This document shows, one piece after another, positions 21-10,872 of a DNA stretch of 11,077 nt (its first letter is position 1; every line of letters starts with the position of its first letter). The notes beneath the pieces are model-generated. The model searched no databases and was not told the origin of the DNA. It saw nothing but the letters and a program-made list of their open reading frames with translations. The translations under genes were made by a program, and so were the position numbers. Source of the stretch: a virus; UHGV virus genome UHGV-0128589; one strand, 5' to 3'.

Positions 21-239
21 ATGATCGCAATTATTTCACTGCCAGGGATATCAATAGCTTCCAGTAAATCGCTACAGCAGGCAATTGCCAATATAAAAAT
101 CTGGCACAAGGGTGAACAGCGCGCGCCGCATAAGCCATTGTTATTGCTATACGTATTAGCGGGATACCTGAATGGACATCCGCGCCTTTTCGATTATTGT
201 AGTGGAACAGTCTACGAGGATGCAGTTCGAAGTGAGTAA
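21..239 (+). CDS. hypothetical protein, flanking DNA outside the satellite (possibly a gene fragment)
   Basis: 72-codon ORF from the ORF track; no motif I can name; lies left of the att-like repeat at 684-722. Confidence 0.3.
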   Translation: MIAIISLPGISIASSKSLQQAIANIKIWHKGEQRAPHKPLLLLYVLAGYLNGHPRLFDYCSGTVYEDAVRSE

Positions 240-3411: not shown

Positions 3412-3732
3412 TCAGTGCACAACAGGCGATTGCATGTGACGGGCGCAGAGTTCATCCATCACCGCAAGCCCGAGAAAGGACAGTGACGGCGCGGCTTTCA
3501 GTGGCCCGCCTTCCATTAAATCTTCCAGCAGGGCACAGGCAATCAGGCGGCCTTTTTCCTCGCCGTACTGGCGCAGATAGAAGCCTTCCAGTCCGGCAGC
3601 AATGGCGCTTTCCAGTGCATCAAGGGTGAGATGTGGATAGCGGTGCTGACGTTCGCACAGGGTCAGCCAGGCACAGGCCACGGCGCGACGATACAGCGCA
3701 GCACGCAGAACAGGGGATAATGAATTTTTCAT
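3412..3732 (-). CDS. small protein directly upstream of alpha; position matches P4 cnr (copy-number regulator), identity not established
   Basis: 106-aa ORF; its stop is 14 nt before the alpha start; its start overlaps the stop of the upstream ORF (ATGA), so likely co-transcribed. Confidence 0.65.
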
Positions 3733-3956
3733 ACATTGCCCTCCCCGGTCAGCCAGCGCTGATTGCAGCGTTCGACCACGCCGTCGAGCTGGGCGGTCAT
3801 GAGGTAAATCACGGAGGTAAGCTGTAACTGCTGCGCCGGGTCACGACGAATAGTGGCGCAGTCCTGCACCTGCATCAGTTCGCCGACGAGCTGGCCGACA
3901 TTGCGCATATGCTCCAGGCATTCGAGGTCACGGGCGGTAATGGTGGTGTGTCTCAT
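3729..3956 (-). CDS. hypothetical small protein of the left (replication) operon
   Basis: 75-aa ORF overlapping both neighbours by 4 nt (translational coupling); no recognisable motif. Confidence 0.55.
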
Positions 3957-4147
3957 GCGCGCACCTCCGCAACCGGCAGACGGCCAGCGAACGAGAGGAC
4001 GTAATCACGAACGAGGGAAAGGCGTGCGGCGTGTTCATCACCGGCAACGGTGCGGAGCATACAAATACGGGGTTTACGGTCTGCGCGACGTACAGCGGCA
4101 AACACAAAAACAAACTGCGGGTGTGACGGGGTGAGGGTCGTAGCCAT
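3953..4147 (-). CDS. Icd-like small protein (cell-division-inhibitor / P4 kil-position gene); the longer 183-aa ORF in the track is probably an artefact
   Basis: Internal start [16 protein letters not shown]... at 4147 with SD GGAGGT about 8 nt upstream (alternative ATG at 4171); N-terminus resembles proteins annotated Icd-like in P4-like prophages (from memory, unverified). Confidence 0.55.
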
Positions 4148-4350
4148 AGTGGCAACCTCCAATGTTTGCATGTGACTGCTACCACTGGAAACGCCAATTT
4201 CACTGGTGGTAGCCCAGACGGGGTTGGCGTAACCGGCAACATTGGAAACCGGCGCTTCGTGAGAAGCCCCCGCCTGAGCCACCATTACTCGAAGGATCCA
4301 AAGGTAGATAAATCTCTGGATCAAAAATGGATGCACTGAGGCATAGACAC

Positions 4351-4372
4351 AAAAAAAGACGCAAGGCGCGTC
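4351..4372 (-). terminator. candidate intrinsic terminator/attenuator inside the leader between the AlpA-like gene and the Icd-like gene
   Basis: On the minus strand GACGC-GCCTT-GCGTC (5-bp GC stem) immediately followed by TTTTTTT. Confidence 0.4.
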
Positions 4373-4500
4373 CGGTGTCGCCAATGTTGTAAACGGGACG
4401 CCAATCCCGGCTGCCGATTTTGCGACAGCGGGAAAACTATACCTGGAAACGGCAAACGGAAGCAAGCCAGAAAAAGGGACTTTTTGCTGAGCGGCCATCA

Positions 4501-4767
4501 TCATGCGTCATAACTCCGGTTGCGTTCGGCAATGCGATCCGCCATCCATGCGGTGATTTCAGACTGTGCCCACGCCACGTTTTTTCCGCCGAGGGAGATT
4601 TGTTTCGGGAATGCCTCGCGGCTGATGAGGTCGTAAATGGTCGACCGGGACAGGCCGCATAAATGCATCACTTCGGGCAGACGGATAAAGCGCTCCTGAA
4701 CGACATCAGAGACCGGCATCAGCGGGGCGGCAGGGGCAGAAGACGGGGAAGAAAAAGCGGTGTGCAT
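4501..4767 (-). CDS. AlpA/Vis-family helix-turn-helix regulator / excisionase
   Basis: 88-aa ORF with typical AlpA core [46 protein letters not shown]; SD GAGGT 7 nt upstream of the ATG at 4767; internal start at MPVSD also possible. Confidence 0.85.
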
Positions 4768-5034
4768 CGGGCTACCTCATAAAGTCCATACAGTGCCGGT
4801 CGTGTCCGTCCGGCTTCGGGTAGCTCTCTATTTTGTGAATATTTTTACTCAGGGCAACAAGTCATTTTGTAGTGGCTTACCATACAACAGATTGATTTTT
4901 AAACAATGGCAAACGCTGGCAAACAGATGCAAATCACTGCATTACATTGCAGCAACTTTTATTTCTTTTACTTATATATTTTTCTTTATCAATCGAAAAA
5001 AAGTCTAAGTGATATCGTCAGTGCAAAAAACAGA

Positions 5035-7238: not shown

Positions 7239-7619
7239 ATGCTAAATCATATTTATGGAATTGTTGGTATAGTTGGCACATTAGTTACGATTGTGACGAG
7301 TTACATCAGAAATCAAGAATTGTCGCAATGGTTCCTTGTATGTTCTGGTTGGCTTACGGCTCTATTGATAGGTTGGTTCACGCATAGAACTATTAAAATT
7401 CTAAGCAAAGATCACAAAGAAACCATCATTAGTAATGATGGTATAAAGCAAACGCTTATAGAGCGGAATGAAACATTAACCACACAACTTACGCATGCAT
7501 TAGAACAGAAAGAAAAAATGGAAGGAATCGCGGCTTATTTAGCAACTCAGAACCCACAAATTAACGCCATGCCTAGAGCCATCGCGCGACAAGAAAATAC
7601 TGAGCTAGGAGGTAATTAA
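7239..7619 (+). CDS. small two-transmembrane-helix protein with C-terminal charged/helical tail; first gene of the accessory operon
   Basis: 126-aa ORF; hydrophobic segments IYGIVGIVGTLVTIVTSYI and WFLVCSGWLTALLIGWF; RBS AAGAGAG 7 nt upstream; AT-rich codon usage unlike the core genes. Confidence 0.7.
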   Translation: MLNHIYGIVGIVGTLVTIVTSYIRNQELSQWFLVCSGWLTALLIGWFTHRTIKILSKDHKETIISNDGIKQTLIERNETLTTQLTHALEQKEKMEGIAAYLATQNPQINAMPRAIARQENTELGGN

Positions 7620-7620
7620 G

Positions 7621-8685
7621 ATGAAAGTAAATTTTGATAGTTATTCATATTATCCTGCATTAAGAACTCGTGCAGCTGAAATACTTGGCTTGAGTAAGCT
7701 TGCTCATGATAAGAAAGAGAAAGTACTTCCACTTATAACCTTAGGGAAATGGCCCCGCTCAGATGAAATTCAAGTTTCTCTTGATAAGAGTCTGGAAGCA
7801 ATGAATAACTTGCCTTTTATTCTGGACGTTACTCAAGAGAACAAGCATCATTGCGCATCAAGCTTTGATCTTCTATCTTCCGAAAATAATTTTTCAAACT
7901 GGATAGCTTTCTGCTCTAAGAATGAGAATATTATCCCCGTAGTTCAAATGCCTGAATCTGCAAGATTAAGGGATATAGTACAGCAAGCAAGAATACTTGA
8001 AGAAAATAAAGGTTCCATTGCATTTCGCATAAAGAACCTTAACACTGATATAAATAAAACAATAGCATCACTTGTGTCTCTCGACTCCCCTGAAAATGCG
8101 GTTATATTCATAGACTTGGGTTACATTCGCGGACATGTCTCAGCAATGACGTCTGCTGCCATAAGTGCAATCAACCAAATAAGGACAGAAATTCCTGAAG
8201 CTATAATTAGTGTACTGTCGACTAGTTTCCCAAGTTCGGTCGCAAACTTTGCAGGAGAAAATGGTCAATCTGGTTATATTGACATTATGGAAAGAGAATT
8301 CCACCAAACTATTGGTGGTCGAGGAGTATCTATATACGGAGATCATAGTTCAATTCACTCTGTTGTATATGATGATGTTGGTGGACGTTATGTCCCAAGA
8401 ATTGACATTGCATTAGATGATGCTTGGTTTTTTGAGAGAAGACCAGGACTTGATAGTAAAGGCTATATAGAAGCAGCAAGAGCGATTCTTAAAAGATACC
8501 CTAATTATCTTGAAGAAGAATCCTGGGGTGCGCTGATGATTAAAAACGCTGCATCAGGCGATATTGCTGGTATGGGGAGTCCCGCTAAATGGATTTCTGT
8601 GCGCGTGAACCTTCATATAACAAAGCAAATTGAGCTATCAGAAGCACTTAAAACAGATTACGATCCTGAAGAGGATTTCTTCTAA
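7621..8685 (+). CDS. uncharacterised 354-aa protein, second gene of the accessory operon; function unknown
   Basis: Long ORF starting 1 nt after the upstream stop; strong SD AGGAGGT 9 nt upstream, embedded in the last codons of the upstream gene; no Walker or other catalytic motif recognisable by eye. Confidence 0.8.
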   Translation: MKVNFDSYSYYPALRTRAAEILGLSKLAHDKKEKVLPLITLGKWPRSDEIQVSLDKSLEAMNNLPFILDVTQENKHHCASSFDLLSSENNFSNWIAFCSKNENIIPVVQMPESARLRDIVQQARILEENKGSIAFRIKNLNTDINKTIASLVSLDSPENAVIFIDLGYIRGHVSAMTSAAISAINQIRTEIPEAIISVLSTSFPSSVANFAGENGQSGYIDIMEREFHQTIGGRGVSIYGDHSSIHSVVYDDVGGRYVPRIDIALDDAWFFERRPGLDSKGYIEAARAILKRYPNYLEEESWGALMIKNAASGDIAGMGSPAKWISVRVNLHITKQIELSEALKTDYDPEEDFF

Positions 8686-8710
8686 AAAATAAGGGAGGGC
8701 AGCCTCCCTT
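8683..8710 (-). terminator. terminator hairpin between the convergent accessory genes (strongest for the minus-strand gene)
   Basis: aagggagg-gcag-cctccctt perfect 8-bp stem; on the minus strand it is followed by ATTTTTT. Confidence 0.55.
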
Positions 8711-9503
8711 ATCGCACGACCCTTTTCAAAACTTTGATGGGAGTGATACTCCCAACCTCTCCGTGCTTTCTCATAAACCCCTCAATATCAACTGTATAAA
8801 AATCATCTAATTTTTCATCAGTATTATCTTCGAAATCTTTAAAGTGATTATGTTCCCGTCTCTTTTTTGATTTACTTAACAAAGTCAAATCGTTAGCATT
8901 CGATAATTCGCTACCTGCTAATTTCTTCAAGTAATCATCAGAAGTTTCTTTATAGCGTTGCTTAATTGCTTTAAGCGCAAAGTCTCTAATTCTAGATAGG
9001 GGAATTTGTTCAGCTATACGCTCTAAAGCCTCACGACCAGACTCGAGTAAAAACTTTTTCCCATTTTCAACAAGAAGTAATTGCAACTCTTTTTTCAGTA
9101 AGAAATTAATATAAACCTTCTTATTACCGAGTACTGCCGTACGCCCACGCTGAACTATTTTAAAACGAATGCCTTTACTAGTATTTATGTATTCAATAAC
9201 ACCAACATCTGATGTTACTTTCTTCGCAATTTCATAAGTAAATTTTGGGGCACAAACAACAGTTACCTTTTCAAAACGAGATGTAAAGGTTTCTAACTGA
9301 CCATCTAATCTTTTAAGAGAGTCAAAATCACTTTTTATTTCAAAAGCTTGCAAGTGTCCATTCGCAACGGCCAGATCAGCGCGGCGACTCCAATTCGCTA
9401 CAACCATTTCATTAATAATGGTTGCGTTCTCTAACAAGCCTTTTTTAAAAAGCCAGTCAATAAATGCGACTTTTACATCTTGCTCTCTTAATAAAAATGA
9501 CAT
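8709..9503 (-). CDS. stand-alone protein with N-terminal PD-(D/E)xK nuclease-like domain and charged helical C-terminal region
   Basis: 264-aa ORF; motif order E7 ... RADLAV (D42) ... AFEIKSD (E54-x-K56) fits the PD-(D/E)xK core; own extended -10 promoter and own terminator; very AT-rich. Confidence 0.8.
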   Translation of the reverse strand: MSFLLREQDVKVAFIDWLFKKGLLENATIINEMVVANWSRRADLAVANGHLQAFEIKSDFDSLKRLDGQLETFTSRFEKVTVVCAPKFTYEIAKKVTSDVGVIEYINTSKGIRFKIVQRGRTAVLGNKKVYINFLLKKELQLLLVENGKKFLLESGREALERIAEQIPLSRIRDFALKAIKQRYKETSDDYLKKLAGSELSNANDLTLLSKSKKRREHNHFKDFEDNTDEKLDDFYTVDIEGFMRKHGEVGSITPIKVLKRVVR

Positions 9504-9594: not shown

Positions 9595-10872
9595 CTAGAT
9601 GTCATTTATTTTACTCCCACAGTCATACGGTGATATATACTCCTTATTATTTAGATCTAAATAATCAGCCCACCACTGAACCATTTTGCGCCTTTCATCT
9701 AAATGTTCTGATGTATGAATATAAGCAGCCCTAACGCCATTACGTTCTGTGTGACTCAACTGACGTTCTATAGCGTCATCGCTCCATAATCCTGACTCAC
9801 CCAGCGCACCACGGGCCATCGTTCTAAATCCATGCCCGCAAACTTCAGTTTTCGTGTCATAGCCCATCGCACGCAATGCGCTGTTTACCGTGTTTTCACT
9901 CATAACCTTAGTTGCGTCATGATCCCCCGGGAACAGCAGCTCTTTATCACCACTAATTTGCTTGAGCTGCTCTAATAAAACCATCGCCTGCCGACTGAGA
10001 GGAACAATATGCTCCTCTTTCATTTTCATGCCACGATACGAGTAACGCACGCCCTTAATTTCTTCTCGCTTTGCAGGTATACGCCAAAGAGATTTATCGA
10101 AGTCGAACTCATCCCAACGCGCGAAACGCAACTCACTGGAACGCACAAAAGTTAGTAAGGAAAGCTCAACCGCGATCCGTGTCATTACACGGCCACGATA
10201 TGCAGCAAGACGTGCAAGAAACTCAGGGAACCGGCTAGAGGGTAAAGCGGGGTAATGTCGCGCTTTGGTTGTCGATAGCGCACCGGCCATATCACTGGCT
10301 GGATTTGAGTCGATGTAATCGTTCTGTACTGCATAACGCATGATAGCCGTGACACGCTGCTGAAGACGCTGTGCGACGTCATGCTTACCACTTGCATCAA
10401 CTTTTTTAATCGGGGCTAACAGGTGGCTAGTCTTGAGCTGGCGAATGTCGGACGAACCAATATGAGGGAAGATATAAAGCTCAAGATAGCGAAGAACGCG
10501 CGATCGATGGTCTTCACTCCAGCGCTTGTTACTGGCGTGCCATTCACGAGCAATGGTTTCGAAAGTATATGCCCCCGAATTCTCGGCCTGAGCTTCTTTC
10601 TGTTCGGCTTTTGGGTCAATGCCCTGCACTAGCAGCTTTTTAGCTTCATCGCGCTTTGCTCTTGCCTGAGCAAGCGTCACAGTAGGCCAAACACCAAAAG
10701 CGAGGCGATCCTCTTTTTTGTCTGAGGGGCGTCTGTATTTCATGCGCCAGTATTTAGAACCCTTAGCCGAAATCTCGAGATACAAACCGCCGCCATCGGC
10801 CATTTTGTAGGTTTTTTCTTTTGGCTTTGCGGTCTCGACCTGTCTGGCGTTGAGCTTCATTTGGGGGCACAT
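9595..10872 (-). CDS. int: P4-type tyrosine integrase / site-specific recombinase
   Basis: 425-aa ORF; N-terminus with the ...KTYKMADGGGLYLEI... motif typical of P4-family integrases; C-terminal HGFRTMARG and downstream tyrosine (VRAAYIH); about 150 bp from the tRNA 3-prime end. Start may be the ATG at 10860 (MKLNARQ). Confidence 0.95.
   Translation of the reverse strand: MCPQMKLNARQVETAKPKEKTYKMADGGGLYLEISAKGSKYWRMKYRRPSDKKEDRLAFGVWPTVTLAQARAKRDEAKKLLVQGIDPKAEQKEAQAENSGAYTFETIAREWHASNKRWSEDHRSRVLRYLELYIFPHIGSSDIRQLKTSHLLAPIKKVDASGKHDVAQRLQQRVTAIMRYAVQNDYIDSNPASDMAGALSTTKARHYPALPSSRFPEFLARLAAYRGRVMTRIAVELSLLTFVRSSELRFARWDEFDFDKSLWRIPAKREEIKGVRYSYRGMKMKEEHIVPLSRQAMVLLEQLKQISGDKELLFPGDHDATKVMSENTVNSALRAMGYDTKTEVCGHGFRTMARGALGESGLWSDDAIERQLSHTERNGVRAAYIHTSEHLDERRKMVQWWADYLDLNNKEYISPYDCGSKINDI

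Follow-up and report, generated by a model that had tools for sequence, protein, structure and literature searches.

A very probable P4-type antisense-RNA immunity region in a P4-like satellite prophage, lying between its AlpA-like and Icd-like genes

The DNA considered here, called the window, is the whole 11,077-nucleotide stretch of the UHGV virus genome UHGV-0128589. It encodes an integrase, Psu, Ogr/Delta, a Sid-like protein (phrog_6165), an 88-aa protein of the AlpA family, a DUF5375 protein, and a 777-aa primase of the P4-alpha type. Judged by this gene content, the window is a P4-like satellite prophage. The P4 gene order is kept throughout, running int, psu, delta, sid-like, AlpA/Vis, Icd-like, DUF5375, and alpha primase. 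The core set that SatelliteFinder uses for P4-like satellites comprises int, psu, delta, sid, alpA, epsilon, and alpha, and these genes are present in the window in the expected order, epsilon excepted; the ORF at the epsilon position is unrelated to the gene that P4 carries there. A search of the window for a tRNA attachment site found none. Three of the genes are placed as follows.

9595-10872: int, the integrase gene
4501-4767, minus strand: AlpA/Vis-like gene, 88 aa, adjoining the leader on its upstream side; homologue of P4 ORF88
3953-4147, minus strand: Icd-like ORF, 64 aa, with its ATG at 4147; matches NCBIfam NF033153 (phage_ICD_like) at 78.3 bits

The AlpA/Vis-like protein matches the Pfam family Phage_AlpA at 72.3 bits and is 70% identical to P4 ORF88. 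The Icd-like ORF is the homologue of the 65-codon ORF that opens the P4 left operon; its product shares 87% identity with the final 65 codons of the frame formerly called "ORF137" in P4. The translated genes of the operon begin with this ORF, which is also the predicted target of regulation. Its stop codon overlaps the start of the next ORF (3953-3956). How is it related to Icd of phage P1? The NCBIfam phage_ICD_like profile scores P1 Icd at 52.6 bits, compared with the 78.3 bits of the window protein. Pairwise BLASTP between the two gave no alignment, so their kinship is visible solely through the profile.

The subject of this analysis is the DNA between these two genes. An earlier note made from the letters of the window described a 330-bp leader at 4172-4500; the features that it named within the gap are where it placed them, but the true intergenic gap extends over 353 bp, from 4148 to 4500. 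The transcribed part of it, from the predicted start (~4429) to the ATG at 4147, comes to ~282 nt. RefSeq annotation of the nearest Escherichia coli relatives lists protein genes alone in this region.

The earlier note proposed that the gap is an immunity-RNA and attenuation region comparable to those of P4 (CI RNA) and P1 (c4), and pointed to a scan with the c4 model as a check. The whole window was scanned with Rfam covariance models at their gathering thresholds (GA). Exactly three matches reached the threshold, and all of them lie on the minus strand, which is the transcribed strand, inside the AlpA-to-Icd gap. The C4 antisense RNA (RF01695) scores 78.5 bits (GA, 45) and covers model positions 1 to 87 of 87, isrK (RF01394) scores 75.0 bits (GA, 50), and c4-a1b1 (RF03163), ~100 nt upstream of C4, is marginal at 48.5 bits (GA, 46.7). 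RF01695 is the family that includes both the c4 RNA of P1/P7 and the CI RNA of P4. The C4 and c4-a1b1 motifs were defined through comparative genomics in 2010 (PMC2864571), and in P4-like prophages the IsrK-like element has been equated with seqA and the C4-like element with CI RNA (PMC3632133; the same link is made in PMC4825925). With these three families, collinearity with P4, and an Icd-family gene downstream, the proposal in the earlier note is borne out. The features of the gap, in the order in which they would be transcribed, are listed here.

4465-4436, minus strand: predicted sigma-70 promoter, homologue of P4 PLE; -35 TTGCTT (4465-4460), 18-nt spacer, -10 TATAGT (4441-4436)
4442-4390, minus strand: c4-a1b1 match (RF03163)
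4429-4352, minus strand: isrK match (RF01394), the IsrK-like or P4 seqA-like leader RNA; hairpin 1 (4429-4410), hairpin 2 (4409-4394), ending at terminator t1
4405-4398, minus strand: target a1, AUUGGCGU
4389-4381, minus strand: target b1, CAACAUUGG
4373-4351, minus strand: intrinsic terminator, GGACGC-GCCUU-GCGUCU plus a U-run
4350-4290, minus strand: spacer from terminator to C4, poorly conserved in alignments A1 and A2
4289-4202, minus strand: C4 or P4 CI-type antisense RNA (RF01695); basal stem of 17 bp (4284-4268 paired with 4223-4207) around two inner hairpins
4248-4237, minus strand: recognition segment b', the C4 loop UUUCCAAUGUUG
4230-4224, minus strand: recognition segment a', single-stranded ACGCCAA
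4213-4178, minus strand: a2-presenting hairpin, with a2 (AUUGGCGU, 4198-4191) in the apical loop; outer stem GCUACCAC/GUGGUAGC, inner stem GAAA/UUUC
4166-4156, minus strand: target b2, AACAUUGGAGG

A protein-coding leader was also considered, in the form of an ORF of 183 aa (3953-4504) reminiscent of ORF137, the historical "cI protein" of P4. It was rejected: three structured-RNA models cover the region, and the changes seen there compensate one another in the pairing of the RNA.

Much of what follows draws on homologous leaders. They were collected by searching for a pattern in which most of the C4 basal stem is held constant, and the sample consists of close structural relatives. The search retrieved 116 loci from genomes that span many genera of the Enterobacterales, along with 120 viral contigs, giving 239 instances with 110 different inner segments and, after de-replication, 205 unique leaders. 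Defined by C4 loop and single-strand segment, these leaders fall into 83 specificity types in which 56 loops are combined with 16 single-strand segments. Pair counts were made on alignment A2, which holds 53 leaders, one per specificity type. In 13 of 15 loci from different genera, an isrK match at or above gathering is found ~60 nt upstream of C4.

The promoter has a weak -35 element (three of six consensus matches) and is absent from the list given by a simple consensus scan. Its -10 element, TATAGT, hardly varies either in A2 or in alignment A1, which includes P4, and lines up with the "-10 consensus" of P4 record X02534. The transcription start predicted from it, near 4429, coincides with position 1 of the Rfam isrK model. 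In the predicted fold of the isrK segment, target a1 sits in the loop of hairpin 2 and target b1 is single-stranded. All seven pairs of hairpin 1 show compensatory changes.

The segment ends in an intrinsic terminator with the stem GGACGC/GCGUCU (4373-4357) followed by seven U residues (4357-4351). It was detected by a terminator scan and corresponds to the hairpin at the 3' end of the isrK model; the earlier note had reported it as a GC hairpin plus T7 on the transcribed strand (4351-4372) and had looked to its conservation in homologous elements. Of the 205 unique leaders, 186 have a stem-loop followed by at least five T residues between a1 and C4, and the compensatory stem variants GACGC..GCGTC and CACGC..GCGTG are among them. 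Two of the terminator pairs are compensatory, and one stem pair is G-C in 31 sequences and C-G in 18. P4 has a nearly identical terminator, and by its place between PLE and cI the window terminator is the positional homologue of P4 t1. The RNA terminated here is predicted to be ~78 nt long, and the short transcript of 100 to 150 nt suggested in the earlier note is thus too long. A helix, GCGACAC/GUGUCGC, brackets the terminator; it is 84.9% paired with four of seven pairs compensatory, a level that shuffled alignments approach (83%). In addition, GCGUCCCGU (4401-4393) is complementary to ACCGGACGC (4376-4368), a candidate antiterminator pairing that would be type specific, the sequence being absent from the P4 type.

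The C4 RNA has a minimum free energy of -48 kcal/mol (z score, -5.2), and its minimum free energy fold is the Rfam structure. A long basal stem, two hairpins, and then a single-stranded segment are all present, as in other C4 RNAs, and a CCA comes after the basal stem (..GCUACCA-CCA..). Four of the five pairs in inner hairpin 1 are compensatory. Why does the basal stem show no pairs that change on both sides? Thirteen of its 17 pairs never vary and three vary on one side, because the search pattern fixed most of that stem.

What would the C4 RNA act on? Two short sequences occur twice in the leader, CCAATGTT at 4159 and 4381 and ACGCCAAT at 4191 and 4398, and each is complementary to the C4 segment around 4224-4246. 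These duplicates, which the earlier note did not mention, are the informative repeats of the region. They make up two pairs of targets on the same transcript, the arrangement expected for a C4 antisense RNA, with a1 (4398-4405) and b1 (4381-4389) upstream of C4 and a2 (4191-4198) and b2 (4156-4166) downstream. Exact complementarity extends over 9 nt for b' with b2, 9 nt for b' with b1, and 7 nt for a' with a2; a' and a1 are complementary over 16 nt at 88%. No further C4 target sites were found elsewhere in the window. Target b2 forms nine Watson-Crick and two G-U pairs with the C4 loop and contains the Shine-Dalgarno sequence GGAGG (4160-4156), 8 nt before the Icd-like ATG. The downstream target thus lies over the ribosome-binding site of a gene that matches the Icd family (NF033153).

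Target a2 is presented by a hairpin of its own. Its outer stem is the 8-bp inverted repeat recognized in the earlier note, GCTACCAC (4178-4185) and GTGGTAGC (4206-4213), whose arms are 100% complementary. The repeat is conserved and covaries with GCTATCGC/GCGATAGC in relatives. In alignment A2, 93.4% of the cells of this hairpin are paired (shuffled, 86.9%), and five of 12 pairs are compensatory. One part of the outer stem does double duty, its 5' arm serving as the 3' arm of the C4 basal stem. The a2 hairpin and the C4 fold are therefore mutually exclusive in the primary transcript.

Do C4 and its targets interact in trans? Whole-molecule RNAduplex energies are dominated by GC-rich stems and discriminate weakly (z scores of -2.8 and -1.7), and covariation was therefore relied on instead. 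The segment a' of a leader has a perfect 7-mer complement in its own upstream region in 204 of the 205 unique leaders and in its own downstream region in at least 204 of the 205. For b', a complement of at least 7 nt is found upstream in 167 and downstream in 183 of the 205, whereas the median longest complement for segments taken from foreign loci is 5 nt upstream and 4 to 5 nt downstream. The positions are fixed as well: a1 is followed by b1 at 15 to 16 nt, a2 lies 12 nt past the end of the pattern, and b2 is 30 to 32 nt beyond a2. In 173 of 183 leaders, the Shine-Dalgarno sequence overlaps b2 or adjoins it. In alignment A2, pairing between C4 and a1/b1 occupies 95.5% of cells (68% when shuffled and 36 to 49% when slid), with 14 of 16 pairs compensatory, and pairing between C4 and a2/b2 occupies 95.0% (shuffled, 71%), with 14 of 18 pairs compensatory. 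For the folds in cis, the values are 97.2% (shuffled, 92.1%) and 14 of 45 pairs. The covariation that the earlier note hoped to see across related satellites is thus found among the 205 unique leaders, where the C4 segments and their targets change together.

The closest well-studied relative of the region is that of P4 itself. Window positions 3962-4799 align with P4 8180-9063, which includes ORF88 and the cI immunity region, at 71.7% DNA identity. P4 contains the same three Rfam families in the same order (C4 at 74.9 bits, isrK at 60.8, and c4-a1b1 at 44.1). All its elements follow one another as they do in the window, and its -10 box, stems, and terminator are nearly the same. The flanking genes are alike, too, consisting of ORF88/Vis on one side and the Icd-like ORF, DUF5375/ORF106, and alpha primase on the other. 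P4 immunity relies on transcription being stopped prematurely at t1, t4, and timm in dependence on the antisense RNA. The Rho-dependent terminator timm of P4 has been placed at X51522 8365-8209 (PMC3177188), which maps onto the first ~157 nt of the P4 ORF homologous to the Icd-like ORF of the window. The spacer from t1 to C4 is ~45 nt shorter in the window than in P4, and the recognition sequences are not the same. The window uses the loop UUUCCAAUGUUG and ACGCCAA with the targets AACAUUGG and UUGGCGU, whereas P4 has UAUCCUGUGAAG and UUCUCAC with the targets UUCACAGG and GUGAGAA. This difference from P4 affects all five places of the recognition segments together, and heteroimmunity of the window element to P4 is predicted on that ground. 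In three of four comparisons between window and P4, cognate recognition-segment duplexes are better than noncognate ones by 9 to 21 kcal/mol; in the remaining one, that of the window C4 on the downstream targets, the margin between its own (-30.8) and those of P4 (-28.5) is just 2.3 kcal/mol.

The immI region of P1 has the three elements in the same order as the window, with c4-a1b1 at 51.0 bits, isrK at 35.1 (below gathering), and C4 at 68.8. In the P1/P7 layout (P51, a1 b1, c4, a2 b2, icd, ant), C4 likewise has two recognition segments and duplicated targets, and b2 likewise lies at the ribosome-binding site of an Icd-family gene. The operon of the window differs in that it lacks the downstream antirepressor gene ant, continuing instead into satellite replication genes, and in that no C1 operator is annotated. 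A third relative is IsrK of Gifsy-1, the namesake of RF01394, a family also marked by Hfq binding and by short and read-through isoforms. The 78-nt segment of the window fits the model end to end, with two 5' hairpins and an intrinsic terminator, but the Gifsy-1 element sits in a lambdoid prophage that has orf45-anrP, not in a P4-like satellite, and the function reported for IsrK is activation of downstream translation. A processed RNA species, STnc1160, has also been reported downstream of Gifsy-1 IsrK (PMC4825925).

What these comparisons establish is homology, membership in the RNA families, the folds, the complementarities together with their covariation, and the overlap of b2 with the ribosome-binding site. 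The DNA separating the AlpA-like gene from the Icd-like gene is, with high probability, an antisense-RNA immunity region of the P4 type. Its layout resembles that of the P4 leader, PLE-seqA-t1-cI-seqC-kil, and that of P1 immI, a1-b1-c4-a2-b2-icd; seqA and seqC of P4 correspond to the upstream and downstream target pairs, and seqB belongs to its CI RNA. The locus would thus be a further example of a well-understood switch, whose small antisense RNA shuts off the replication genes of the very element that encodes it.

How would such a region work? The dynamic steps, namely, expression, processing by RNase P, Rho-dependent termination, and an intrinsic terminator that responds to the antisense RNA, are drawn here by analogy from work on P4 and P1. 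Transcription of the minus strand would start near 4429 from the promoter ending at 4436. The nascent RNA would display a1 in its hairpin loop and then b1 before meeting the terminator at 4373-4351. Transcripts that read through would carry the ~80-nt C4/CI RNA (4289-4202), to be excised by processing, a step reportedly performed by RNase P in both P1 and P4. C4 RNAs of this family accumulate in stable form at about 70 to 80 nt. Through its b' loop and a', the mature C4/CI RNA would pair with a2 and b2, blocking translation of the Icd-like ORF. The untranslated RNA would then be terminated by Rho inside that ORF, and the downstream replication genes, including the alpha primase, would therefore stay off. 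Pairing of C4/CI with a1/b1 on the nascent RNA would favor a stop at the intrinsic terminator, providing feedback on the synthesis of C4/CI itself. The t1 terminator of P4 is said to need both CI RNA and seqA (Briani et al. 2000, Mol Microbiol 36:1124).

Is premature termination needed to explain the region? In P1-style control, C4 would simply mask a2/b2 and repress the Icd-like ORF together with any translation coupled to it, leaving the hairpin as a constitutive attenuator or a relic. The identical layout of P1 immI, where a hairpin and U-run also lie between b1 and c4, is consistent with this, as are the overlap of b2 with the Shine-Dalgarno sequence and the overlap of the Icd-like stop codon with the next start, which would allow coupling. 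The element is far closer to P4 (71.7% DNA identity and 87% identity in the Icd-like protein) than to P1, whose Icd gives no BLASTP alignment, however, and the start of the homologous P4 ORF is the mapped site of timm; the conservation of the terminator with compensatory changes also argues for its use. Control of this kind alone is therefore improbable. A still less probable reading takes its cue from IsrK and has the 78-nt RNA opening the read-through mRNA in trans to activate translation or titrating C4 as a decoy; the region would then chiefly be an activating or anti-antisense device and not a repressor. The 75-bit isrK match includes the terminator, and the short RNA carries a1 and b1, which by sequence would be perfect binding sites for C4. 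Short and long isoforms of IsrK and its structural homology to P4 seqA have been described (PMC4825925), and IsrK-like elements of P4-like prophages were required in a TraDIS study of Salmonella Typhi (PMC3632133). Against it, the strongest covariation ties C4 to both target pairs, as a repressor model predicts, and apart from the a/b sequences that the two have in common, nothing in the short RNA is complementary to the downstream leader. Such a role would in any case add to the P4-type model and not replace it.

What about the heptamer TGGAAAC, which the earlier note singled out as a threefold repeat? The three copies are indeed present on the plus strand, at 4186, 4243, and 4444, but no special role can be assigned to them and their number is within chance. 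In 495 of 5,000 dinucleotide shuffles of 4172-4500, one strand carries at least three copies of some 7-mer. Across the window, TGGAAAC has five matches (1.75 expected), a number reached in eight of 200 shuffles. P4 lacks it at all three aligned positions, 46 of the 53 specificity types have no copy at all, and among the 14 leaders that share the window's immunity type, only five carry three. The copies can be accounted for one by one. The one at 4243-4249 is part of the b' loop, in which UUUCC is the anti-Shine-Dalgarno portion; that at 4186-4192 comprises the end of a2 and the 3' side of the inner stem closing the a2 loop; and that at 4444-4450 falls in the promoter spacer. The heptamer was accordingly rejected as a functional repeat. 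Could the copies instead be operator half-sites for a DNA-binding regulator of the leader promoter, such as the AlpA/Vis-like protein? Three copies do lie on the same strand within 265 bp, one of them inside the promoter spacer, and Vis of P4 reportedly regulates the promoters of the P4 left operon. Given the chance-level count, the absence from P4 and from most types, the incomplete conservation within the window's own type, and the fact that two copies are fully accounted for as parts of RNA structures, this reading is highly improbable.

For the P4-type immunity region, the gain is mainly one of annotation: three previously unannotated RNA elements and four target sites account for the whole AlpA-to-Icd gap. 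Immunity is predicted against satellites of the element's own type and not against P4. The comparative data also provide clean natural evidence of compensatory mutation for an RNA-RNA interaction in trans. Two ideas that reach beyond the textbook P4 model concern the family and not the window specifically. Owing to the conserved intrinsic terminator, the 78-nt a1/b1 RNA may be a stable partner in trans, a decoy or activator that together with C4/CI RNA forms a two-RNA toggle. Specificity, for its part, may be a modular two-part code, in which a1, b1, a'/b', a2, and b2 are swapped in concert; these swaps presumably arise by recombination, creating new immunity groups among coresident satellites. 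Taken jointly, the two ideas are put forward tentatively, as possible rather than probable. A systematic description of the diversity of immunity types was not found, and the phrase "CI RNA" is absent from the surveys of P4-like satellites returned by the literature search. A catalogue of immunity types could serve to classify P4-like satellites and to predict which of them can coexist in one cell. In the present sample, the type of the window is the commonest, with 12 identical inner segments and 14 unique leaders.

How is immunity specificity built into the C4 leaders? Across the 205 unique leaders among the homologous loci (L003-L238), the loop segment b' occurs in 56 variants and the single-stranded segment a' in 16, in 83 combinations, and the target copies all vary together with these recognition segments. 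One a', such as the ACGCCAA of the window, is combined with several distinct loops, and one loop likewise with several a'. Immunity specificity in C4 leaders appears to be modular. In the window, CGCCAAT on the plus strand (AUUGGCG in the RNA) is present three times in the leader interval: a1 and a2 each contain it, and a third copy overlaps b1. Because of this third copy, the b1 region of the window's immunity type holds targets of both types, a and b.

Copies of CGCCAAT in the window:
4378-4405 and 4191-4198, plus strand, CGCCAAT

Matches to two Rfam families, isrK (RF01394) and c4-a1b1 (RF03163), have about 40 nt of one strand in common in the window, in phages P4 (L001) and P1 (L239), and in 6 of 15 other loci.

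Overlap of isrK and c4-a1b1:
window 4390-4429, same strand
P4, L001 1974-2013, same strand
P1, L239 48230-48269, same strand

The two are one element modelled twice, though only c4-a1b1 belongs to the C4 clan (CL00128), isrK being in no clan. A further potential helix, GCGACAC...GUGUCGC, is absent from every Rfam model.

Potential helix:
window 4346-4379, columns 113-119 with 145-151 of A2, the alignment of 53 leaders (one per specificity type)

It is conserved and would enclose the intrinsic terminator and its U-tract; the window's version has only 5 bp. Over the whole of A2 the helix is 84.9% paired, with compensatory changes in four of the seven pairs, but shuffles reach 83%.

Other sequences near the leader:
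4466-4500, minus strand, A/U-rich inverted repeat AAAAAGUCCCUUUUU in the gap from the stop codon of the AlpA-like gene to the leader promoter
3729-3956, minus strand, 75-aa ORF of unknown function (phrog_10110) occupying the P4 epsilon position

The inverted repeat is kept in P4 as AAAAACUCCCUUUUU. The 75-aa ORF (3729-3956) has no similarity to P4 epsilon; its ATG (3956-3954) shares bases with the stop codon of the Icd-like ORF (3955-3953), an arrangement that would permit translational coupling.

In public P4 records, ORF137 still carries the label "cI gene product" or "transcriptional repressor."

P4 ORF137:
L001 1489-1905, equal to X51522 8168-8584 (also NC_001609)

This labelling is a legacy misannotation, since the frame covers the gene for the CI RNA, seqC, and the true Icd-like ORF of 65 codons.

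Elsewhere in the window, the psu-int segment carries three genes. For P4-like satellites, a hotspot of anti-phage systems has been described at this position (PMC9122126).

Other window genes:
within 7239-9503, 126-aa ORF of no firm family, its sole matches below curated cut-offs
within 7239-9503, 354-aa Beta_protein (Pfam PF14350)
within 7239-9503, minus strand, 264-aa sce7726-family protein
21-239, plus strand, 72-aa ORF with a partial NCBIfam match

The 72-aa ORF at the left edge is probably a gene remnant; its match, whose 60.6 bits fall short of the cutoff of 180, covers only the first 45 of the 284 positions in the model for a phosphorothioated-DNA-binding restriction endonuclease.

C4 RNAs also have other neighbours. 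On an Escherichia sp. contig (L045, 1535-2623), a C4 RNA has no accompanying isrK match, and a PK-repZ pseudoknot is found about 850 nt away from it. Such a pseudoknot is an element of IncI-type replicons, and its proximity suggests that this C4 copy is plasmid-borne. In a Pectobacterium locus (L027, 1881-4102), C4 is accompanied by STAXI and EFASI RNAs less than 2 kb away.
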